Below, piece after piece: positions 19,868-63,828 of a DNA stretch of 64,000 nucleotides. The number at the start of each line of letters is the position of its first letter. Within the stretch, counting starts at the first letter, position 1. A program made the position numbers and the translations under genes. The notes beneath the pieces were generated by a model. The model was not told the DNA's origin. It was given only the letters and a program-made list of their open reading frames with translations, and made no database searches. Origin of the DNA: Candidatus Aminicenantes bacterium (GTDB lineage: Bacteria; Acidobacteriota; Aminicenantia; Aminicenantales; JAFGBC01); contig OY969696.1 in the NCBI GenBank assembly GCA_963702005.1, forward strand, positions 2,112,001-2,176,000, given 5' to 3'.

Positions 19868-20818
19868 ATGAAACGAAGAGAATTCGTATCCAAAGGATTC
19901 GGCGCGGCGACGGCCGCCGCGGCGCTCGGTGTCGGCGGGTTCGCGGCAGGCCGGGCGCAGGAGGCTGCGGGCGTCCAGGCCCAGGCGCCGACAGCCGCGG
20001 CGAAGTCCATCTTCAAACTCCGCTACGCGCCGCCCTTCGGCATGTTCAAGGCCCACGCCGGCGACGACCCGATCGCCCAGATCCGGTTCGCCGCCGACGA
20101 GGGGTTCGGCGCCATGTTCGACAACGGCCTGATGGGCCGTCCCGCCGCCCAGCAGGAGTCCATCGTCAAGGAGCTCGAGCGGCGCGGCATGATCCTGGGC
20201 CCCTTCGTCCTTTACGCCGATTTCGGCGTCAGAAGCTTCGTGACCCGCGACTGGGACATCCGCGACATGCTCCTGGCCAAGATGCGTCAGGGCGTCGAAA
20301 CCATGAAGCGGACGGGCTGCAAATGGGCCCTGGTCGTTCCCGGCCACTTCGACGAGAGCCTGGCCTGGGAATACCAGACCGCCAATGTCGTCGACAACCT
20401 CCATTTCTGCATGGAGGTCTGCGAGGCCGCCGGCCTCATCCTCGTCCTCGAGCCGCTCAACCCCAAGGACCATCCCGGCCTGTTCCTGACCCGGATTCCG
20501 CAAGCCTATGCCATCACCAAGGCGGTCGGCAGCCCCTCCTGCAAGATCCTGGACGACTTGTATCATCAGCAGATCACGGAGGGGAATCTCATTCCCAACA
20601 TCGACGCGGCCTGGGACGAGATCGCGGCTTTCCACCTCGGCGACACTCCCGGCCGCAAGGAGCCGGGGACGGGCGAGATCAACTATCGAAATATCTTCAA
20701 GCACATTCACGCCAAGGGCTATCAGGGCGTCCTGTGCATGGAGCATGGGATGAGCCTGAAGGGCAAGGAAGGCGAGCGGGCCGTCATCGATGCTTACAAA
20801 ATTTGCGACGAGTTTTAA
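19868..20818 (+). CDS. Tat-exported hydroxypyruvate isomerase-like TIM barrel
   Basis: KRREF Tat motif; LEPLN, DLYHQQITEGN, DTPGRKEPGTGEINY. Confidence 0.9.
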   Translation: MKRREFVSKGFGAATAAAALGVGGFAAGRAQEAAGVQAQAPTAAAKSIFKLRYAPPFGMFKAHAGDDPIAQIRFAADEGFGAMFDNGLMGRPAAQQESIVKELERRGMILGPFVLYADFGVRSFVTRDWDIRDMLLAKMRQGVETMKRTGCKWALVVPGHFDESLAWEYQTANVVDNLHFCMEVCEAAGLILVLEPLNPKDHPGLFLTRIPQAYAITKAVGSPSCKILDDLYHQQITEGNLIPNIDAAWDEIAAFHLGDTPGRKEPGTGEINYRNIFKHIHAKGYQGVLCMEHGMSLKGKEGERAVIDAYKICDEF

Positions 20819-20842
20819 TTAAGTCGTGTGTCCCCGGAATTC
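20817..20842. repeat. single REP-like family A arm
   Basis: 25/26 identical to reverse complement of 15859-15884. Confidence 0.8.
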
Positions 20843-20853
20843 AGGAGGAATAA

Positions 20854-22131
20854 ATGAGTGAACGGGCGGACAAAAGCCATCTGACTAGACGAGATTTCAT
20901 CAAGGCTTCGGCGGCGGCCTCGATCGCGGCCGCCATCCCCGGAAGCCTCGGGCTCCACGCGGCGGGCTCGGACGCGATCAAGATCGGGATCATCGGCTGC
21001 GGCGGACGCGGCACGGGCGCCGCCATCGACGCCATGGACGCCGCGCCGGGGGTCGAAGTTGTGGCCCTCCACGACGCGTTCCAGGACCGCCTCGACGGAT
21101 CGCTCAAGCGCCTGCGGGAGAAGCATGCCGACAAGATCAAGGTCACGCCCGACCGCTGCTTCGTGGGTCTAGACGGTCATGAGCGGCTGTGCGCCCTTCC
21201 CGACGTCAACATGGTCGTCCTGGCCGCCCCGCCCGGCTTCCGGCCCATGCACCTCAAGGCCGCCGTCGAGGCCGGCAAAAACGTCTTCATGGAAAAGCCG
21301 GTCGCGGTGGACCCGGTCGGCATCCGCTCCGTCATCGCCTCATCGGACCTGGCGCTCCGCAAGGGTTTGGCCGTCGTGGCCGGGACGCAGCGGCGCCACC
21401 AGGCCAGCTACCTCGAACTCATGAAGCGGATCCACGCCGGCGAGATAGGGGAGCTCGTCGGCGGCCAGTGCTACTGGAACCAGGGCTTCCTGTGGGTCAA
21501 GGCGCGCGAAGCCGGCTGGTCCGACATGGAGTGGCAGTGCCGCAACTGGCTCTATTTCACCTGGCTGTCGGGGGATCACATCGTCGAACAGCACGTCCAC
21601 AACATCGATGTCATCAACTGGGCTTTCCGCGCCCTCCCGGTCCGCTGCTTCGCCATGGGCGGCCGCCAAGTCCGGACCGCACCCGAGTGCGGGAACATTT
21701 TCGACCATTTCGCGGTCGAGTTCGAATATCCCAACGGCGTCCGCATCCTGAGCATGTGCCGCCAGATCGACGGGACCTTCGAGCGGGTGGAGGAGAGGAT
21801 CGTCGGGACCAAGGGCGTCGGGTTCGGATTCGGCGAGATCCGGGGCGAGAAGCCCTGGAAGTTCGAGGGGGAAGAGCCCAATCCCTACGTCGTCGAGCAT
21901 GCCGACCTCATCGCGAGCGTCCGCGCCGGGACGCCGCTCAACGAAGGCCGCCGGATCGCGGAAAGCACGCTCTGCGCGATCATGGGCCGGATGAGCGCCT
22001 ACACGGGCCGGGCCATGAGCTGGGAATGGGTTCTGAATTCCTCCCAGCTCGACCTCATGCCGGCCAAGCTCGAGTTCGGGCCGCTCCCGGTCGCGCCGGT
22101 CGCCGTCCCCGGCCAAACCCCGTTGATTTAG
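20854..22131 (+). CDS. Tat-exported Gfo/Idh/MocA oxidoreductase
   Basis: TRRDFIK; IGCGGRG; EKP; EQHVHNID. Confidence 0.93.
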   Translation: MSERADKSHLTRRDFIKASAAASIAAAIPGSLGLHAAGSDAIKIGIIGCGGRGTGAAIDAMDAAPGVEVVALHDAFQDRLDGSLKRLREKHADKIKVTPDRCFVGLDGHERLCALPDVNMVVLAAPPGFRPMHLKAAVEAGKNVFMEKPVAVDPVGIRSVIASSDLALRKGLAVVAGTQRRHQASYLELMKRIHAGEIGELVGGQCYWNQGFLWVKAREAGWSDMEWQCRNWLYFTWLSGDHIVEQHVHNIDVINWAFRALPVRCFAMGGRQVRTAPECGNIFDHFAVEFEYPNGVRILSMCRQIDGTFERVEERIVGTKGVGFGFGEIRGEKPWKFEGEEPNPYVVEHADLIASVRAGTPLNEGRRIAESTLCAIMGRMSAYTGRAMSWEWVLNSSQLDLMPAKLEFGPLPVAPVAVPGQTPLI

Positions 22132-49525: not shown

Positions 49526-50248
49526 TTAGAACCGCTTCGAGGTGTAGCGGTCCAGGGCTTTCTTGAGGTCGTCGACGGCGGACGGCGTCTTGAGGGCTTT
49601 ATCGAAAAAGATGTCCGGAGGCTGGAGGTTACGGCCGTAGAACGCCTGGTCGGCGTCCTCGTCGACCTTTAAGCTGGCCCCTTTGATGGAGATGCCCGCG
49701 AACAATCCCTTGCTCTTGGAGTAGGAATAGATCTCGGCCTTCATCTCCCAATCGGTGCTGGCCTCGGCCGAACGTCCGACCGGCCCGGCCGCGACGCCGA
49801 CGTCGGCCCCCAGCGTGAGGTCTCCCTTGACGACGTTGTCGATGCCCCGCCGTGTCTTGAAGACGAGGATGACGTCGGCCTTCTGGACGCCGATCTGCCA
49901 GCCGATGCTCCCGCCGATCAGGGAGATGAAGACGGGGTTCGACCATTCGCCCCGATCGTTCTTGACGACGATCAGGCCCCGGCCGTACTGGCCTCCGAAT
50001 CCGTAGGCGGCTTTGATGACGCCGGGGATGATGGCCAAACCATAACATTTGTCGAGAAGCGCCGAGGGAAGCCCCTCCTCAGGGATGTCGACGAGCTCCC
50101 CGAGGACCCGGATGGATTCGGCGATCCGCTCGCCCCCCGGGGAATCGGCGACTCCGGCCGGAGCCGGCCGGGCCGGGAGCGCGAGGCCGGTCGAGCCGAA
50201 CGCCGCTATCGCCAGAATAACAATCAAACGACGTGTCTGTTTGATCAT
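49526..50248 (-). CDS. SYLF/YSC84 lipid-binding domain protein
   Basis: GGSIGWQIG, AAGPVGR, YSYSKSKGLFAG. Confidence 0.92.
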   Translation of the reverse strand: MIKQTRRLIVILAIAAFGSTGLALPARPAPAGVADSPGGERIAESIRVLGELVDIPEEGLPSALLDKCYGLAIIPGVIKAAYGFGGQYGRGLIVVKNDRGEWSNPVFISLIGGSIGWQIGVQKADVILVFKTRRGIDNVVKGDLTLGADVGVAAGPVGRSAEASTDWEMKAEIYSYSKSKGLFAGISIKGASLKVDEDADQAFYGRNLQPPDIFFDKALKTPSAVDDLKKALDRYTSKRF

Positions 50249-50324
50249 GGTATTCTCCTCGCCTGAAACGTTCATCTTAACATATATACGGCTAAAAATA
50301 GCTGGAGTTTGAGAACGAGAGAGC

Positions 50325-50517: not shown

Positions 50518-50544
50518 GGGCGGCCCTCACGGCGAGAGCCGCCC
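50518..50544 (-). terminator. hairpin downstream of thioredoxin-TPR gene
   Basis: GGGCGGC...GCCGCCC stem about 25 nt after stop; weak U-tract. Confidence 0.4.
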
Positions 50545-50568: not shown

Positions 50569-52092
50569 CTACTTTTTCTCCGCGGCTTTTTTTTCCTCGT
50601 CCTGGGCTTTCTTGATCCGCTCCAGCCTCTGCTTGAAATAGTCAACCTGGTCGCCGGCGAGCTTGATCGCCTCCTGGGCGGCCTTTGTCGCCTCGTCGTA
50701 CTTCTTCATCTTGAGGTAGATGGTGGCGACGATATCCCAGACATAGGAGGAGGGCGTCAGCTCGAGGGCCCGGTTGGCCGCGGCCAGCGCGCTCTCGAGA
50801 TTCGCCCCCTGATTAGCCCAGAAGCGGGCGTAGGGCGCGAGGGAGTCGGACTTGTCCCAGTTTTTTTTGGCGTAGTCCGAACCGAGAACGGCCAGGGCCT
50901 GGTCCTTTTTATCAAGGTTCCAGTAAACGCCCGCGGCCTGCATCAAGAGATAGGCGCTGTCGGGATTCAACTTGAGGGCTAAATCGACCATCTTGAGGAC
51001 GCTTTCGGTGTTGGCCTTCTGCTTGGTCCAGAAGTTCGCATATTCGATGAGGTCGTAGCCGAGGCGGGTGACCTTATCGTTCATGACGGCCTTGCCGTAG
51101 ACGTCATCGGCCTTAGCCTGATCGCCCTTGAGAATGTAGAGCTCGGCCAGGTTCTGCTGGAAGGAGGAGATCGGGTTGTATTCGGTGAGCTTCTCGATCT
51201 TCTTGGCGAGTTCGATCCCATGATCGACGTCCGCTTTGTTCTTGATTAAGAATTCCACATAGGAATTGAGGGCGAAGGGTTTATCGGGGAACTTGGCGAC
51301 GTATTCCTCGAAGAAGGGCGCAGCCTTGTCCCTGGACTCGTCCCGATAATAATAGCTCAAATACTGGTAGGCATTTTCGAGGAGCTTGCTCTGGGGATAC
51401 TTGGCGATAAAGGCTTTCAGCGGGGCCGCGTCTCTATTCGGCCAATTGAAGACGGCCATCTGGCCGAGCGAGAACTCTGCGTATTCGGTGTAGCTGACCT
51501 TCTCCCCGTTCCAGGTTTCGGTCGTGCCGAGCTTCCCCTCGGGGTCGAGGGCGATGACTTCCTTGAAGAGAGCCTTGGCCTTGTCCTGGGCGGTATAGCG
51601 GTCGTCGTATTTCTTGGCGAGCTTGAAGATGACATCGATCGCCTTGGGCTCTTTGGCGTAGCGCTCGGCCAAGACCTTGTAGGTGTCGATCCCGTTGATC
51701 GTATTCTCGACCCTGGCGTGGAACTTTTCGGCGGGCGGCCCGTAGCCGACCTGCCAGTCGACTTCGCTCCCGTCGCCAGCCACGAAAAGCACCGTCGGAG
51801 TCGCGCTGACTTTATAGCGCTTGAAGATCGCCTCGCCTTTCCGGTCGGCGCGGTCGGCCAGGAACATGACGAAATGGGTTTTAAAGAATTCCTGAAACTT
51901 CGGATTTGCGAAATACTGCTGACCCAGCAGTACGCAGGAGCCTCAGCCACCGGAGAAGAAGTCGATGAGGACTAACTTCCCTTCGGACTTGGCCTTGGCC
52001 AGGGCTTCGTCCAATGAGCCCTGGAACCAGCTCTGTCCGAAGGCCGCGGTGGCGAGGAGACAGAACATCAGCATGGCAGCGAATTTTTTCAT
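50569..52092 (-). CDS. secreted thioredoxin-like (UxxC) + TPR protein, predicted selenoprotein (507 aa, Sec50)
   Basis: AAGGAGG RBS, ATG 52092, signal peptide, WFQGSLDEALAKAKSEGKLVLIDFFSGG[TGA 51945-51943]GSC in frame with ORF 50569-51867 (TPTVLF cis-Pro loop, TPRs). Confidence 0.88.
51907..51936 (-). promoter_or_regulatory. bacterial SECIS-like hairpin
   Basis: UGCG-UACUGCUG-GGU-CAGCAGUA-UUU-CGCA; G-first apical loop 18 nt after UGA. Confidence 0.75.
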
Positions 52093-52224
52093 GAACGTCT
52101 CGCCTCCTTGGGCATTCTTGAATACTCTATCCTATGTATAATCCTATACGCAAAACACCCTCTCTATCAATACGCAGGTCAAGACGCCTTGGTTGCCGCC
52201 GTTGGGCGTCCTTTCGCCGTTTCT

Positions 52225-53033
52225 CTATTCTTTCTTCAGACGGAGGCGGAATGTGGGGGCGGGCTTGTCCTCGAGGGCGTGGGCGGCCCAAAGCATCCCG
52301 CGCTGGACGATCGTCCGGGCCTGGGGGACATCGAAGTCCTTGGCGACGTGGCCGAGCGAGGTGTAGAAGACCCGTCCCTTTCCGTAGTACTTCTTCCAGA
52401 CAACGGGCATGACGACGCCCTCGACCCAGGGCGCGTACTTTCCGGAGAAGGTCGTCGCAGCCAGGACCTCGTTGCCGGGGTCGACCAGCATGTAGTACTG
52501 CTCGGAGTTCATCTTGAAGTCGGTCAGGCCGGCCGTGATCGGGTCGTCGTGGTTGACGATGTTGACCTCGTAATCGATGACTCCGCCCGGGTGGGCGGCC
52601 CAGGCGCCGCCGACCATGAATTCATACTCGGTATTGCTTCGGAACGCGTCGGCCATGCCGCCGTGCCAGCCGGCCATGCCGACTCCGCTCTTGATGGCTT
52701 CGAGCAGGCCCGACTGCTGCTGGGGGGTGATCGTCGACATGGTGAAGACCTGGACGATGAGGTCGAGGGATTTCATTTTCGCGGCGTCAAGGTAGGAATC
52801 CAGGGTCGTCGAGATCTCGACCTCGAAGCCCTGCTCGGCCAGCCAGGGCGCGAAGATGTCCACGCACTGCTTGGGTTCGTGGCCCTCCCAGCCGCCCCAG
52901 ACGAACAAAGCCTCTTCTTCTTTTCCTGGCTCGCTCCGGGAAGGGTCATCAGAAATGCGCCCAATAAAATGACGATCGGCCAAAAAGCAAGCTTGGACCG
53001 GGCGGCGGGATGTCGAGTTGTTTTGTCAGTCAT
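52225..53033 (-). pseudogene. ThuA-like domain protein with -1 frameshift after signal peptide (near 52912)
   Basis: Signal peptide frame ends ASQEKKK; [28 protein letters not shown] continue in another frame; one base missing in GAAAAGAAGAAGAGGCT. Confidence 0.8.
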
Positions 53034-53038
53034 GGCGG

Positions 53039-53794
53039 TCAGAGCTCTCGAATCCAGATATTGCGGTAGCGGACCGGGTTCCCATGGTCCTGGAGCGAGA
53101 GGGGGAGCTTGTCCGGATGGGCCTTGTAGGGCGGACGCGCCTTGTGGGCGGTCGGACCGGTCAGCACGTCGTTGTCATGGACGAGGATGCCGTTGTGGAA
53201 GACCGTCATCCGGGCCGGCTTGAGAAGAGACCCGTCCGGCGCGAATCGGGGCGCGTGGAAGATGATGTCGTAGCTCTGCCACTCGCCCGGAGGCCGGCAG
53301 ACATTGACGAGGGGGGGGAACTGGCCGTAGATGGCGGCGGCCTGTCCGTCGGCGTAGGTCCGGTTCTGATAGGAATCGAGGACCTGGACTTCGTAAGTGT
53401 CCATCAGGAAGACGCCGCTGTTGCCGCGGCCCTGGCCTTCGCCTGCAACGACCGCCGGCGACGCCCATTCGACGTGAAGCTGGCAGTCGCCGTACCCTTT
53501 TTTGGTCCGGATCGAGCCCGTCTCGGCGACGACTTCCATGAAACCGTCCGCGACCTTCCAGCCGGCCGGATTCCCTTTAGTATCCTCCCATTGGGCGAGG
53601 TCCTTGCCGCTGAAGAGGACGACGGCGTCCGAGGGGGCGGGGGAGGGCGGTCCGGACGAACCCGGATCGACGACCGCCGGGACGGGCCGGTTCATATCGT
53701 GGATAGCCCAATCCTGGCCGCCGGACGCGCCGGCCCACACCAAAGCGGCCGAAATTAATAGACCTGTCAGCGCTAGAATTCGGAGGCTCGTCAT
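53039..53794 (-). CDS. DUF1080 (3-keto-disaccharide hydrolase family) protein
   Basis: GNSGVF, YEVQVLD, GEWQSYDI, LQDHG; signal peptide. Confidence 0.93.
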   Translation of the reverse strand: MTSLRILALTGLLISAALVWAGASGGQDWAIHDMNRPVPAVVDPGSSGPPSPAPSDAVVLFSGKDLAQWEDTKGNPAGWKVADGFMEVVAETGSIRTKKGYGDCQLHVEWASPAVVAGEGQGRGNSGVFLMDTYEVQVLDSYQNRTYADGQAAAIYGQFPPLVNVCRPPGEWQSYDIIFHAPRFAPDGSLLKPARMTVFHNGILVHDNDVLTGPTAHKARPPYKAHPDKLPLSLQDHGNPVRYRNIWIREL

Positions 53795-58159: not shown

Positions 58160-59409
58160 AGCGTCCAGGGCGAACGCATAGGTTCGCCGATCAACCGGTT
58201 CGCCTCATCATCTCCGATGAACCTCTCGCGCTCGGGATCGAAGCGAAGCCCGCGTCCGAGCCGGACCGCGATCTTGGCCAGGTTGACGAGCGTGCAGGAG
58301 CGGTGTCCGTTCTCCTCGTTCAGCGGGAATTTTCGGCGCTCACGGACGGCCCTGCTGAAATCGGAATCCTGCGGTTCGGGGTCGGGCAGGGAGGCCACGG
58401 TCTCCTTGATCCTGGGGATATCCGAATCGAACCCCCGCATGAGCTTGCCCAGAGGACCTTGGAGAAAAGGAGCGTTCGGATCTTTGTTTTCGCCGTCGAG
58501 AAAAATCTCGCAGCCGTCCGCATATCGCAGCCGGACCCAGCTCCAGGAGCCGCAGGCGTCCGGGTGCTGCTGGGGCGCTTCGGCTTCGACCTCCACCGGG
58601 CCCGTGCCGTCCTTGTCGAGGAGGTACTGGACGGGGTCGAGATAGTGCTGGCCCATGTCCCCCAGGCCTCCGCCGTCATAATCCCAGTAACCGCGGAAGG
58701 TCCCATGGACCCGGTGAGGGTGGTAAGGTTTTTCGGGCGCCGGGCCGAGCCAGAAATCATAATCGAGGTCCGCGGGCACGGGCTGGGGCGGGAGCCAGGT
58801 CTTGCCGCTCCAGTAGAATTTCCAATCGAATCCGGTGGCCCGGCTGACCGTGACCTTGAGCGGCCAGCCCAGCAGTCCGCTCCGGACGAGCTTTTTGATC
58901 GGCTTGACCTCCGTTCCGAAGCCGTAGAAAGTGTCCTGGAACCTGAACCAGGTGTTGACGCGCAGCATCCGGCCGTTTCTGCGGACCGCCTCGACGAGCC
59001 TCCGGCCTTCTCCGATCGTCCTGGTCAACGGCTTTTCACACCAGATGTCCTTGCCCGCCTCGGCGGCGGCCGCGGCGATCAGGGCGTGCCAGTGGGGCGG
59101 GGTCGCGACGTGGACGATATCGATGTCGGGACGTGCCAGGACCTCGCGGAAATCCCGATAACCCTTGACGCCGGGCCCGCCGATCTCCAGGGCTTCTCTG
59201 AGGTGACCGGCGTCGACATCGCAGACGGCCAGGAGTCTCGCGCCCGGATAGGTCAGGTGGCCCTGCCCCATGTTCCCCACGCCGATGACGGCCTTGGTCA
59301 GCTCGTCGGAAGGGGCCGTGAAGCCGGAGCCGCCCAGGACGCGGCGCGGCACGATGGTCGCCGCGGCGGCGGCCAGGGCCGCCCGCTTGAGGAAGTTGCG
59401 TCGATCCAT
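58156..59409 (-). CDS. Tat-exported Gfo/Idh/MocA oxidoreductase
   Basis: DRRNFLK; IGVGNMG; TPPHWH; CEKP; DMGQHYLD. Confidence 0.93.
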   Translation of the reverse strand: MDRRNFLKRAALAAAAATIVPRRVLGGSGFTAPSDELTKAVIGVGNMGQGHLTYPGARLLAVCDVDAGHLREALEIGGPGVKGYRDFREVLARPDIDIVHVATPPHWHALIAAAAAEAGKDIWCEKPLTRTIGEGRRLVEAVRRNGRMLRVNTWFRFQDTFYGFGTEVKPIKKLVRSGLLGWPLKVTVSRATGFDWKFYWSGKTWLPPQPVPADLDYDFWLGPAPEKPYHPHRVHGTFRGYWDYDGGGLGDMGQHYLDPVQYLLDKDGTGPVEVEAEAPQQHPDACGSWSWVRLRYADGCEIFLDGENKDPNAPFLQGPLGKLMRGFDSDIPRIKETVASLPDPEPQDSDFSRAVRERRKFPLNEENGHRSCTLVNLAKIAVRLGRGLRFDPERERFIGDDEANRLIGEPMRSPWTL

Positions 59410-59526
59410 GTCTGCCTTTCCGGAGGTCGAGTCCTATATTATCTTTTCTTGGGCTCGGACTTCAACCTCTCGCAAAGCCCCGGAAAAAGAACTGAGATAG
59501 TCTTATAATAGCATCCGGAGGGACAA

Positions 59527-59766
59527 GTGATCCCGCAGATTCCTTACGGCGGCATCGGCTTAGGCATCGCTTTGATCTTCATCGGTCTGGCTTTCTATGA
59601 AGCCGAAGCGACGGGCAGGATCATCATCCTGTGCGTGCTCGCCCTGTCCTTCATCCTCCCGGCGATTGCATCTTCTTATGCGTTGGGGGTCGTCTGCCAG
59701 ATCGGGCGCCTGGTCTTTGGCGCGTGCTGCTACGTCTATTGGAAATATCGGGTCGCAACGTCCTGA
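59527..59766 (+). CDS. small 3-TM membrane protein
   Basis: GGAGGG RBS, GTG start, three hydrophobic segments. Confidence 0.6.
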   Translation: MIPQIPYGGIGLGIALIFIGLAFYEAEATGRIIILCVLALSFILPAIASSYALGVVCQIGRLVFGACCYVYWKYRVATS

Positions 59767-59822
59767 CGGGAACGACGAGCGAAGCGGCCCCAGGGCCGTT
59801 TCCGCAGCCTAAGGAGGATATC

Positions 59823-60011
59823 ATGCCCCTCATCGAAATTCACATGCTCGAGGGCCGAACCGACGAACAGAAGGAGAGGCTCCTGGGGGCGGTCACCAAG
59901 GCCGTCCATGAGTCGATCGGCGCGCCGCTCCCGACCATCCGGGTCTGGATCCAGGAGTTCTCGCCGCGGGAATACATGTCGGCCGGCGAGTTGGCCGCTC
60001 ACCGAAAATAG
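59823..60011 (+). CDS. 4-oxalocrotonate tautomerase family protein
   Basis: MPLIEIHMLEGRTDEQK with catalytic Pro1; AAGGAGG RBS. Confidence 0.93.
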   Translation: MPLIEIHMLEGRTDEQKERLLGAVTKAVHESIGAPLPTIRVWIQEFSPREYMSAGELAAHRK

Positions 60012-60028
60012 GCTGAGAGGGGACTCGC

Positions 60029-60991
60029 TCAGGCGCCGTTCCGCTTTCGCATCCGGAACGTGATCTTGCGGCTTTTAAAAATGGTGACCCGTCCGCCGAT
60101 CGGGATGGCCATCGGGTCCCGGCTGACGCCGTGGCCGAAGTTGGAAACGGCCAGGATCGGAAGCGGGTAGCCCTGGCGCCGTCTCCAGCGGATGATATCG
60201 TCGAGGTAGGTGAGGACGAAGGCCCGCGCTTCGTTCTGGCTCTTCCGGTCGTGGGCGTTCTTGCCGTAGGGGATGAGGGAGCCGATGACGAGACCGCGGA
60301 CTCTGCGGAAGATGTTATGGCGGCGCAGGGCGGCCAGCAGCCTGTGGACGTCCTCGACGTCGATCTGGACATCTTCGAAAAAAAGGATGTGGCGTTTCCA
60401 GTTGAACTTGGGCGGCTCCTTCCGGTTCAGGAAGTTGACGAAGGTCGACAGGTTCCCGCCGATCGGGATCCCCGAGAAGCGCCGGACCGGGGGCGCCGTC
60501 AGCCAGGCCGATCCCTGGTAGTGGATCTCCTCCCCCGAGATGAGGGACAGGACCTTATTGATGCGCCCGCCCCCCAGCTGGAGGGAGGGGAAGTAGATCA
60601 GGGGGACCCGGGAATGATAGTAGATTTCGTTGAGAAGGAAGGTGAAGTCCGAGAAGCCGACGATGAGGGGGCGACGCTCCCGGATGACCCGGAAATCCTT
60701 TCCGTCGATCTTGAAGGCCAGGTCCTCGGCGCCCGTCCCGCCCGCGACCGATACGACGAGATCATAGTCCCGGACGGCCCGCTTGAAGTCATCGGACCGC
60801 TGCTCGGCCGAGGCCGAAACGTGCTCGATCTGGTCGTCGCTCGAGAAGAGGTACTCGCTGAAGGCGATGTCCTTGACGCCCAGGAATTTCTTGAGGCGGC
60901 TGCGGGTCCGGAGCAGGGCGCTCCGGTCGTTACGAGACAGACAGGTCGAGGGGGCGATGAAAATAGCTTTGTCGAAGGAGTGAGCGTTCAT
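60029..60991 (-). CDS. LD-carboxypeptidase (S66)
   Basis: IAPS, GFSDFT, GGNL, FFED, NFGH. Confidence 0.85.
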   Translation of the reverse strand: MNAHSFDKAIFIAPSTCLSRNDRSALLRTRSRLKKFLGVKDIAFSEYLFSSDDQIEHVSASAEQRSDDFKRAVRDYDLVVSVAGGTGAEDLAFKIDGKDFRVIRERRPLIVGFSDFTFLLNEIYYHSRVPLIYFPSLQLGGGRINKVLSLISGEEIHYQGSAWLTAPPVRRFSGIPIGGNLSTFVNFLNRKEPPKFNWKRHILFFEDVQIDVEDVHRLLAALRRHNIFRRVRGLVIGSLIPYGKNAHDRKSQNEARAFVLTYLDDIIRWRRRQGYPLPILAVSNFGHGVSRDPMAIPIGGRVTIFKSRKITFRMRKRNGA

Positions 60992-61213: not shown

Positions 61214-62659
61214 TCAGTTCAAGGTTTCGAGGGGCTTGTAGAGTTTTTTGAGGGCCTTGAGCTCGATCTGGCGGATGCGCTCCCGAGTCAGGTTGAAGTA
61301 CTGGCCGACCTCCTCGAGCGTCCGCTCCTGGCCGTCGTCCAGGCCGTAGCGCATGCGGAGGATCCGCATCTCCCTGTCGTTGAGGGTTTTGAGGGCCGCT
61401 TCGATATGTTCCCGGAGATTGATGTGGATGACCGCGTCGGGCGGGGAGGGGAGGGTCTTATCCTCGAGGAAATCGGCCAAGCTGCTCTCCCCGCTGTCGC
61501 CGATCCGGGTTTCGATCGAGACCGGCTCCTGGGTGTTCCTGAGCATCTCGCTGACCTTGCTGACCGGGAACCCGGACTTGCGGGCCAGGTCCTCCGTGGT
61601 CGCCTCTTTCCCGTTCTTCTTGAGGATTTCCTGGGCGGCCCGAGACAGGCGCTGGAGCGTTTCGACCATGTGGACGGGGACCCGGATGGTCCGGGCCTGG
61701 TCGGCGATCGCCCGGGTGATGGATTGGCGGATCCACCAAGTCGCGTAGGTCGAGAACTTATGGCCGCGGCGGTAGTCGAACTTATCGACGGCCCGCATCA
61801 GCCCGATATTCCCCTCCTGGATGAGATCCAGGAAATGGAGGCCCCGGTTCTGGTAGTGCTTGGCGATGGAGACGACGAGCCTCAGGTTGGCCGCGATCAT
61901 CTCTTGCTTGGCTTCGTCGCGGGCCCGCTTGCTTTCCCCGATGAGCTTGAGGAGTTTCCGGGCGTGGACTCGACGGGATTTGGGGCCCCGGAATCGCGCG
62001 GCCATAAGCTCAGACTGCAGGCTGACGACGAAGTCCTCGACGCCGTCGGGCTTGAGGTCGAGTTGCTTGAAGAGGCCCATCATGCGGACGACCAGACGTC
62101 CCCTGGCCATCCGGTTCTTGGCGGCGGGCCTGATCCGCTTGAGCCGTCGTTCAAGACCGTTGAGGGCCTTCAGGATCTCAAGAACGGCCTTGTGCCGCCG
62201 GGCCAATCCGGCTTCCTCGAACTCGTCCTCATTCAGATGGAAGCCTTTTTTGACCGCATCCGGAGATGTCTTGACCATGGCCTCGAGGGCTCTGAGCTCG
62301 TCCATGGTACGGGGGCTCCGGGCCAGGGCTTTGAGGATCCCTTTCTGGCCCTTCTCGATCTTCTTGGCCAGGAGGACTTCTTCCTCCTTGCTCAAGAGAA
62401 GGATGCTCCCCATCTCCCGGAGGTAGAGGCGGACGAGGTCGGTCGTCTGCTCGGACTCACCCGGGGGAGGCCCCGCCTGGGGCTGGGCCGGCTTGGGCCG
62501 CGGCTCCTCGTCGGGGAGGGGCATTCCGAAGGCGGAGTCCTCCCAGGATTCCTCTTGGGAAGCCAACGGAGAGGGTAGGCCCTCTAGGGGGAGAGATTCC
62601 TGGGCTCGAACCTCGGCCTCGAACAAGGCCTCGTTCGTATATTTCTGATCCTTGGACAT
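61214..62659 (-). CDS. sigma70 factor, RpoD/SigA-like
   Basis: Region 1.2 [11 protein letters not shown]; [11 protein letters not shown]; [10 protein letters not shown]; TRERIRQIE. Confidence 0.93.
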
Positions 62660-62787
62660 TGTCTTCTCCTGACCTCTTTATCAATCATATGGGATAACTC
62701 ATGTTAATCGAATTTGGTTTCAAATAATACGAGGAAATTGTTTCAAATGCAAGCATTTTTTTTACATTTTTCGAGGCTGGCCGCCCC

Positions 62788-63828
62788 TTAAAACCGGCAG
62801 GAGCCGCCGTGTTTTTCGTAATATCTCTGGTGGTAGTCCTCGGCCCGGGTGAACGTCGCGGCCGGGACGACCTGGGTCACGATCGGCTTAGGAAATCGTC
62901 CGGACGCCGCCAAGCCGGCCATAGCCTCGAGCGCCTGCCGGCGCTGGTCCTCGCCGTGAGCGAAAATGGCCGAGCGGTACTGAGTTCCTGTGTCCGGGCC
63001 CTGACGGTCGAGCTGAGTGGGGTCGTGGATGCGGAAAAAGACATCCAGGAGCTCCCTGTAGCTGACCCGTGAGGGATCGAAACGGACCTCGACGGCTTCG
63101 GCGTGGCCGGTCTGGTCCGTACAGACTTCCTGGTAGGTCGGATGGTCGGTCCGGCCGCCCGTGTAGCCGACTTGGGTGTCGACGACGCCCGGGACCCGGC
63201 GGAACTCGGCTTCGACGCCCCAGAAACATCCCGCCGCGAAAGTCGCGATTTCGGCCTTCGTTTCCGGGGCGACCGGGGCCGACCCCTCCGCCCGGCCGTC
63301 GGCGGAGCGACCGTCCGGCCGGAAATCCAGGGCCGCCGAATTGATGCAGTAGTGGAGGCGCGAAGGAGCCGGCCCGTCGTCGAAGACGTGCCCTAAGTGG
63401 CCTCCGCAGACGGCGCAGCGGACCTCGGTCCTCTTCATCAGGAAGGAACGGTCCTCCCGGAACTCGAGCTTGGAGAGGTCGATCGGCTCGAAAAAGCTGG
63501 GCCAGCCCGTCCCGTGCTCGTACTTGGCCTTCGAGGAGAAGAGAGGGGTCCCGCAACCGGCGCAGAGATAGGTCCCTTCCTTCCAGAAATCATTGAACTT
63601 GCCGCTGAACGCGGGCTCCGTCCCGCACATCCTCAGGACTTTATACTGATCCGGCGTCAGCGTCGTCTTCCAATCCTGGTCCTTTTTGGGGGTTTTGTCG
63701 TTCATGGTCCTTCCTTCGCGGGCCGCGATGCGCCCCGGGTGAGGGGCGCCCGTGACCAAGGCGTTGAAAGCGGCCCAGCCGGCCGCCGTTCCCGCCGCAA
63801 TGATCAGGGACGCGACGATTTTACGCAT
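62788..63828 (-). CDS. msrBA: bifunctional methionine sulfoxide reductase MsrB-MsrA
   Basis: GWPSF, HLGHVF, YCINS (MsrB); GCFWG, GHAE, QYRS, AEDYHQ (MsrA). Confidence 0.95.
   Translation of the reverse strand: MRKIVASLIIAAGTAAGWAAFNALVTGAPHPGRIAAREGRTMNDKTPKKDQDWKTTLTPDQYKVLRMCGTEPAFSGKFNDFWKEGTYLCAGCGTPLFSSKAKYEHGTGWPSFFEPIDLSKLEFREDRSFLMKRTEVRCAVCGGHLGHVFDDGPAPSRLHYCINSAALDFRPDGRSADGRAEGSAPVAPETKAEIATFAAGCFWGVEAEFRRVPGVVDTQVGYTGGRTDHPTYQEVCTDQTGHAEAVEVRFDPSRVSYRELLDVFFRIHDPTQLDRQGPDTGTQYRSAIFAHGEDQRRQALEAMAGLAASGRFPKPIVTQVVPAATFTRAEDYHQRYYEKHGGSCRF

Follow-up and report, generated by a model that had tools for sequence, protein, structure and literature searches.

A window of 64,000 nucleotides from Candidatus Aminicenantes bacterium (contig OY969696.1, positions 2,112,001 to 2,176,000; window positions are counted from its first letter) contains on its minus strand what is very probably one gene and not two. 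Judged from its sequence, it is a genuine selenocysteine (Sec)-encoding gene for a single protein, predicted to be exported, in which a thioredoxin-fold domain is joined to a long tetratricopeptide repeat (TPR) region. The initial annotation had proposed that the open reading frame (ORF) called from position 51867 extends 75 codons upstream, through one in-frame TGA, to an ATG preceded by an AAGGAGG ribosome-binding site, and direct reading of the window located each of these elements (Table 1). As was also proposed, the single TGA (51945-51943) lies at the position of the first cysteine in the thioredoxin motif (IDFFSGG-U-GSC), and when it was read as Sec (U), the translation around codon 50 was LIDFFSGG-U-GSC-VLLGQQYF. 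The expected truncation by standard gene callers was found in two places. Under translation table 11, the frame is split into an ORF of 49 amino acid residues (52092-51943) and an ORF of 432 residues starting at 51867, and the public collections contain the 432-residue form (P0002), about 100 similar 'TPR repeat proteins' of 400-450 residues, and many 49-residue 'hypothetical proteins' ending at the TGA. A search with residues 1-135 for shorter proteins returned only N-terminal stubs of 49-84 residues and no named stand-alone thioredoxin relatives. A GGAGG-like box ahead of the MKK start is also found in many of the related loci described below. A promoter-like site and a terminator-like hairpin flank the whole full-length frame, on weak consensus evidence (the promoter scan of the region gave two such sites, with 0.7 expected).

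The TGA at codon 50 was conserved in all the DNA copies of the gene that we read. Our scan of the genome collection for related loci was seeded on C-terminal peptide motifs and was hence blind to codon 50. It found 77 loci, mostly in metagenome-assembled genomes of Aminicenantes, and all of the 75 loci that cover codon 50 (the other two are without the N-terminal part) have TGA there, with protein identities of 41-56% and flanks conserved on both sides. For the metagenome contigs, we used a pattern that allowed TGN at codon 50 and required the hairpin, so that cysteine (Cys) forms without the hairpin were invisible to it; there were at least 126 matches on at least 120 contigs, and among the matches listed, 125 were family members, with TGA in 125 of 125 and no TGG or TGY. 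One metagenome match with TGT was an unrelated sequence. A six-frame search of 151 genomes of the class gave 53 matches, all of which carry one TGA; nine of them also contain TAG or TAA and reach the end of the query, probably reflecting alignment over the gene's own stop. When 401 genomes of the phylum were searched in six frames with the Cys-form protein P0122 as the query, all 16 matches had TGA and no Cys form was found among these genomes, and the control without a hairpin thus consists of protein sequences alone. The 16 matches include a clade of another class (L223, L224 and L225, from genomes G190, G175 and G157, respectively), which is 29-31% identical to P0122 and has the motif T-U-G-P-C.

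Among protein sequences, P0122 is a full-length homologue (45% identical) with the Cys form FGCQGC, and distant relatives carry WCGPC. The alignment of homologues at residue 50, which the initial annotation had recommended, therefore shows TGA in all DNA copies read and Cys in the protein homologue P0122. Two features by which bacterial selenoproteins are recognised were present, namely a conserved in-frame UGA with coding conservation on both sides and a Cys homologue at the Sec position. The same genome has a second copy of the gene (C1:1013352-1015049; L092:1499 onward), 41% identical to the first, with its own AAGGAGG, a signal peptide, U-G-S-C at the TGA and the same hairpin, in which the loop reads GUC. 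Because the TGA is conserved in all relatives and in this paralogue, a sequencing error at the TGA is implausible.

A hairpin starts 11 nucleotides (nt) after UGA50. The initial annotation had described it as a perfect stem of 8 bp with a GGU loop 18 nt downstream of the TGA, and direct reading gave the same structure: positions 51932-51925 pair perfectly with 51921-51914, the GGT loop is at 51924-51922, and the UGA and the loop are exactly 18 nt apart. According to PMC13188914 (legend of Fig. 2), the model of the bacterial selenocysteine insertion sequence (bSECIS) has a loop of 3-9 nt, a stem of 4-16 bp, a G in the first two loop positions, a distance of 16-37 nt from the UGA and a minimum free energy (MFE) of -7.5 kcal/mol or lower. 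The hairpin is within these limits (a 3-nt GGU loop, a stem of 8 bp, 18 nt, and -14.6 kcal/mol when the 40 nt from the UGA were folded alone). As the fold of the single sequence is modest, it is because of the comparative data, that is, the conservation of the codon and the pairing, that we consider the TGA and the hairpin to be beyond chance. Pairing was found in 97.0% of 560 cells (70 distinct sequences), compared with 13.8-65.7% when the 3' partner was slid by 1-3 columns. Both partners change in four of the eight pairs (C-G is replaced by U-A in 11 rows, G-C by C-G in 4 and A-U by U-A in 11), and none of 500 shuffles reached the observed percentage paired, the number of doubly changed cells or the covariation score. 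All 76 aligned sequences have G as the first base of the loop. The distant clade of the other class has the same hairpin and contains both the C-G and the U-A version of a pair, which points to repeated changes.

The initial annotation had proposed a search of the genome for selA, selB, selD and tRNA-Sec; all four were found, clustered side by side at C1:765451-770102, with scores of 561.7 bits for selA, 364.6 bits for selD, 288.1 bits (summed) for selB and 73.8 bits for tRNA-Sec, and ARAGORN calls the tRNA as SeC with the anticodon tca. The full Sec machinery by which a bacterial selenoprotein is also recognised is thus present in the genome, with the caveat of a frame break in selB, which is considered below. 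Among the 151 genomes of the class, 29 hold the gene and 31 hold selA, and selA was found in 28 of the 29 holders versus 3 of the 122 genomes without the gene. The distance between the gene and selA is only about 1.4-2 kb in two genomes (Table 1).

The protein translated through the TGA belongs to the Thioredoxin_7/Thioredoxin_2 oxidoreductases: the Pfam models Thioredoxin_7 (PF13899, residues 23-105, 45.1 bits) and Thioredoxin_2 (PF13098, residues 34-125, 44.9 bits) both score above their gathering cut-off of 27, and the UGSC motif (50-53) stands ahead of a helix at residues 51-61. The nearest of 41 PDB sequence matches was 2kuc, a putative disulphide isomerase (7e-12, residues 17-129), followed by plant and bacterial thioredoxins and chains of the DsbD C-terminal domain at 1e-07 to 1e-05 (best DsbD, 1.3e-05). 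An AlphaFold2 model was built from 39 full-length homologues translated with the TGA read through. Its mean predicted local distance difference test (pLDDT) score was 94.5 and its predicted template modelling score was 0.82, and it was poorly defined only at residues 1-20. The thioredoxin fold of the model, of beta-alpha-beta topology, covers residues 27-132 and places residue 50 directly ahead of helix 51-61; the TPR region comprises 22 further helices, with pLDDT mostly above 90. The Pfam models TPR_14, TPR_2, TPR_8 and TPR_19 match between residues about 240 and 480, and these four models together with the 22 modelled helices agree with the long TPR scaffold of the initial annotation.

The N-terminus reads MKKFAAMLMFCLLATAAFG|Q and, as judged by eye, consists of MKK, a hydrophobic core of 13-14 residues and then A-F-G|Q. 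K2, A17 and Q20 are nearly invariant among the 39 homologues, and residues 4-18 form a low-pLDDT helix in the AlphaFold2 model; both observations are consistent with the signal peptide for export that the initial annotation had put forward. In the distant clade, the N-terminus ends in a lipobox-like AAGC or AAAC, followed by QQ, in place of the AFG|Q-type end, and this resemblance to a lipoprotein signal suggests a membrane-anchored form. The genome encodes BamA, as in a diderm, and a membrane protein of the DsbD_TM/CcdA type. From the conserved N-terminal signal, the lipobox variants and the diderm setting, the protein is predicted to be exported.

We weighed the Sec-encoding gene against three other explanations. 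If the TGA were a true stop, the locus would be a pseudogene, or would encode a secreted peptide of 49 residues and a cytoplasmic TPR protein of 432 residues from 51867. The table-11 ORFs are exactly these two, and both the 432-residue form and many of the 49-residue stubs are in the public collections. However, the Pfam thioredoxin domain (23-105 and 34-125) and the AlphaFold2 fold span the TGA, and the residues between the TGA and the called start (51-75) are conserved, with C53, L55, L56 and Q59 invariant in the 39 full-length homologues, while Met76 is not kept among the homologues in the protein alignment. A stop of one and the same codon in 75 of 75 loci and in 125 of 125 of the metagenome matches listed, all divergent copies, is also unlike decay, and a contiguous Cys homologue exists, so that a true stop is exceedingly improbable. 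Reading of the UGA as a standard amino acid, by a reassigned code (Trp or Gly) or by near-cognate read-through, would fit the W that is printed at position 50 in three full-length proteins (P0028, P0108 and P0113) and the DGWGGC of the distant P0233. These W proteins, however, stem from short contigs of 2263-2748 nt and closely resemble TGA-carrying loci, and TGG was found in none of the 200 DNA copies read (75 loci and, for the metagenomes, the 125 matches listed); from their sequences, we infer that the W is the product of gene calling with a TGA=Trp model on short contigs. Moreover, the gene tracks selA and has a SECIS-type hairpin, and a reassigned genetic code was excluded because long ORFs in the genome end with TGA more often than with any other stop (among 1637 ORFs of 400 residues or more, 828 end with TGA, 415 with TAA and 394 with TAG). 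The probability that the UGA encodes a standard amino acid is accordingly negligible.

The third explanation accepts the insertion of Sec and regards the hairpin as a by-product of a required LLxQQ peptide, with the true SelB element being different or larger. The stem is wholly within the codons of conserved residues, among them the invariant L55, L56 and Q59; a loop of 3 nt is the shortest that the published model (PMC13188914) allows; and the MFE fold of the window sequence lengthens the stem by four further pairs. Yet the choice of codons is tighter than the peptide needs: the CUG codon of Leu55 occurs with CAG of Gln60 in 59 rows and UUG with CAA in 11 rows, and they are never mixed. When the Leu56 codon is CUC, the partner codon is GAG, so that Gln59 becomes Glu (4 rows). 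LLxQQ is absent from the protein sequences of P0122 and the WCGPC relatives, and because these Cys-form relatives are without it, LLxQQ goes with the UGA and not with the fold. We consider that the LLxQQ peptide following the motif mostly reflects, in the protein, the sequence of the SECIS stem (CUGCUG...CAGCAG), and that the by-product explanation is very unlikely.

Several observations weigh against the interpretation as a Sec-encoding gene for an exported protein. The selB gene (C1:768099-769995; L012:1413-3309) is split over two frames by a break at C1:768190, the first 32 residues of SelB being in a different frame from the remainder, with an extra letter within a GAAGAAGAAG run of this single-contig assembly. 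Contigs of two wetland metagenome runs from two studies are each without one letter at C1:768190, which gives the normal SelB frame; as these contigs have 2-3 further letter differences from the genome, they may represent close relatives and not this strain, and they are contigs rather than reads, with depths that are uninformative on abundance. The selB break is thus either an assembly indel or strain-specific. One holder of the gene, G034 (93% complete, 390 contigs), showed no selA. With regard to the hairpin, the fold of the single sequence stood out only moderately from those of shuffled versions (z = -2.39, with 2 of 200 shuffles folding equally well), extra pair types were without excess (7 versus 6.1; 99 of 500 shuffles), 17 of the 70 rows leave the outermost pair open, and, the related sequences being kin, fewer independent events underlie the covariation than its counts suggest. 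A database fragment of 153 residues (P0185) prints Ser at the Sec position. The export, redox and scaffold roles are predicted from sequence and model only, and a Foldseek search with the whole protein against PDB yielded only generic TPR superhelices (template modelling score of 0.33 or less) and no functional lead.

We also consider how the selenoprotein might work, for which a periplasmic role in redox reactions and as a scaffold seems somewhat likely from sequence and model. The product would be a precursor of 507 residues, comprising an N-terminal signal peptide for the Sec secretion pathway, a U-G-S-C domain related to DsbD-gamma and Thioredoxin_7, and a TPR superhelix of about 370 residues. 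SelB with Sec-tRNA(Sec) would recognise the hairpin on the translating mRNA and selenocysteine would be inserted at UGA50. Export of the chain would follow, with cleavage of its signal peptide behind AFG. Once periplasmic, the exposed selenolate at the N-terminal end of helix 51-61 would attack disulfides or oxidised cysteines, with Cys53 resolving the intermediate, and in this way may reduce or isomerise disulfides, or repair oxidised cysteines, of envelope proteins. The TPR superhelix may hold a client or partner protein, by analogy with the thioredoxin-TPR 'chaperedoxins', and re-reduction could proceed via the CcdA/DsbD-type membrane protein of the genome.

The positions of the features are summarized in Table 1. 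In related genomes, between 2 and 4-5 copies of the gene stand side by side in tandem, each with its own TGA. The gene in the window is flanked by genes for a ThuA-family protein, a protein of the 3-keto-disaccharide hydrolase family whose start resembles a signal peptide, and a protein with a Ysc84/SYLF domain, which have no evident connection with the selenoprotein. The neighbourhoods of the 77 related loci were compared by crude ORF clustering, which is noisy in GC-rich DNA, and by Pfam, and no universally conserved neighbour was found by these means. The genes cydAB (cytochrome bd oxidase subunits I and II by Pfam) precede the gene on its own strand in 33 of the 77 loci (for example, L032:24-2180), which may reflect only synteny within one clade; the other neighbours were an O-methyltransferase (29 loci), a HpcH/HpaI aldolase (21) and an esterase (17). 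Because there is no consistent partner and none of these four is present in the window, no functional link was drawn from the neighbours.

Table 1. Features of the selenoprotein gene in the window, and related positions in other genomes
Feature	Position	Strand	Remark
Full-length selenoprotein gene	50569..52092	-	507 codons + TAG; codon 50 UGA as Sec; homologues align over residues 1-502 across the TGA
Ribosome-binding site AAGGAGG	52103..52109	-	10 nt 5' of the ATG at 52092; direct reading
Sec codon UGA, residue 50	51943..51945	-	Sole in-frame TGA; first position of the U-G-S-C redox motif
Resolving cysteine codon TGC, residue 53	51934..51936	-	C53 invariant in 39 full-length homologues
bSECIS-like hairpin, 8-bp stem + GGU loop	51914..51932	-	Encodes V-L-L-G-Q-Q-Y
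Met76 ATG chosen by standard gene calling	51865..51867	-	75 codons downstream of the full-length start; 432-residue truncated product
Stop TAG of the full frame	50571-50569	-	Direct reading
Signal-peptide-like N-terminus, residues 1-20	52033..52092	-	MKK, hydrophobic core, AFG|Q
Thioredoxin-fold domain, residues about 23-132	51697..52026	-	Pfam and AlphaFold2; spans the TGA
All-helical TPR-type superhelix, residues about 138-506	50575..51681	-	Pfam TPR models and AlphaFold2
Sigma-70-like promoter match TTGATA-18 nt-TAGGAT	52141..52170	-	Consensus scan, 9/12 positions; upstream of the full-length start
Terminator-like GC-rich hairpin + T-rich tail	50518..50544	-	Consensus scan: 12 pairs, 9 G-C; 25 nt past the stop; weak evidence
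Window neighbours	52225-52983, 53039-53794, 49526-50275	-	Flanking genes
Gene near selA	G135:C54, gene 20389-21879, selA 23291-24661		
Gene near selA	G099:C5, gene 62135-63610, selA 58660-60030		
Tandem array	G045:C81:26031-31964		4-5 copies
Tandem array	G105:C31:214611-218885		
Tandem array	G147:C1:280810-283968		

Every copy seen in Aminicenantia and in the second acidobacterial clade uses UGA (Sec). That these copies form an undescribed selenoprotein family which is effectively obligate for Sec is a tentative proposal, about which we have some doubt. If it is true, the protein would be the first Sec-dependent extracytoplasmic 'chaperedoxin', a thioredoxin head with a selenolate on a client-binding TPR scaffold, repairing or reducing oxidised envelope proteins in bacteria of anoxic sediments and wetlands, and the gene could be a main reason for the retention of the Sec trait in these lineages. 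Gene calling fails systematically on selenoprotein genes, and in the present case the result is hundreds of truncated 'TPR repeat proteins', 49-residue stubs and a few products with a spurious Trp. Recognition of the gene corrects the annotation of a widespread gene in Aminicenantes, which are common in wetlands and sediments, and adds the thioredoxin-TPR architecture to the known selenoproteome. The family is also a clean natural case of a protein motif under constraint from an RNA element (SECIS), and the compact 19-nt hairpin with natural compensatory variants is suited to the study of SelB recognition outside Proteobacteria. As the mechanism is canonical, known biology is extended and not changed; the case is one of annotation error rather than of a new mechanism.

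Among predicted bacterial selenoproteins, UxxC proteins with a thioredoxin fold are the most frequent kind. The closest of them in description is the 'Thiol:disulfide interchange protein' family (PF13098, UxxC), an exported family that the tables of PMC13188914 and PMC9312934 already include as predicted with high confidence. The present protein is like this family in having a Thioredoxin_2-type domain (44.9 bits, cut-off 27) and a UxxC motif with Sec first, but differs in the TPR region of about 370 residues that follows, a distinction drawn from the description of the family only. The words TPR and tetratricopeptide are absent from both papers, and a 2026 review does not mention TPR, tetratricopeptide or Acidobacteria. 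The UGSC-containing selenoprotein (NF041046), described in PMC2398784 as abundant in ocean metagenomes, has the same U-G-S-C motif and a probable thioredoxin-like fold, and Cys homologues of it are very few. The 14 NCBIfam matches of the present protein, P0001 (E of 0.1 or lower), do not include NF041046, and the shared U-G-S-C is a coincidence of the redox site in a different family.

No NCBIfam selenoprotein model reached its cut-off on P0001. The curated selenoprotein models TsoB (NF045694, 39.4 bits with a cut-off of 805), which is the best NCBIfam match, and VPGUxxT (NF041383, 20 with a cut-off of 275) match through their thioredoxin-like domain at scores far short of these cut-offs, and their motifs and architectures differ. 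The matches to NF001419 (DsbD; 34.6 bits with a cut-off of 330) and NF043050 (22.5 with a cut-off of 190) are likewise at the domain level only. DsbD-gamma/DsbH-type reductases and 2kuc are close in sequence over residues 17-129 and provide an extracytoplasmic reductase context, with several cytoplasmic thioredoxins scoring between 2kuc (7e-12) and the DsbD chains (from 1.3e-05); the DsbD/DsbH-type reductases have Cys instead of Sec and no TPR region.

The known thioredoxin-TPR 'chaperedoxins' (CnoX/YbbN of E. coli and the plant tetratricoredoxin) are cytoplasmic and have Cys or Ser at the site. They have in common with the present protein the logic of a thioredoxin domain with a TPR region for binding clients or partners, which we take as a functional analogy only: no CnoX/YbbN-type chain was found among the 41 PDB sequence matches or the listed Foldseek matches, and the protein was not assigned to CnoX. 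In a full-text search of the literature available, we found no Aminicenantes selenoprotein and no Sec-containing thioredoxin-TPR protein, while supplementary selenoproteome tables may list the family; it is probably uncatalogued and widespread in Aminicenantes. What is known in this system is the thioredoxin-fold UxxC selenoprotein and its canonical recoding, and what is new is the fusion to a TPR region, the near-exclusive use of Sec and the tandem expansion.

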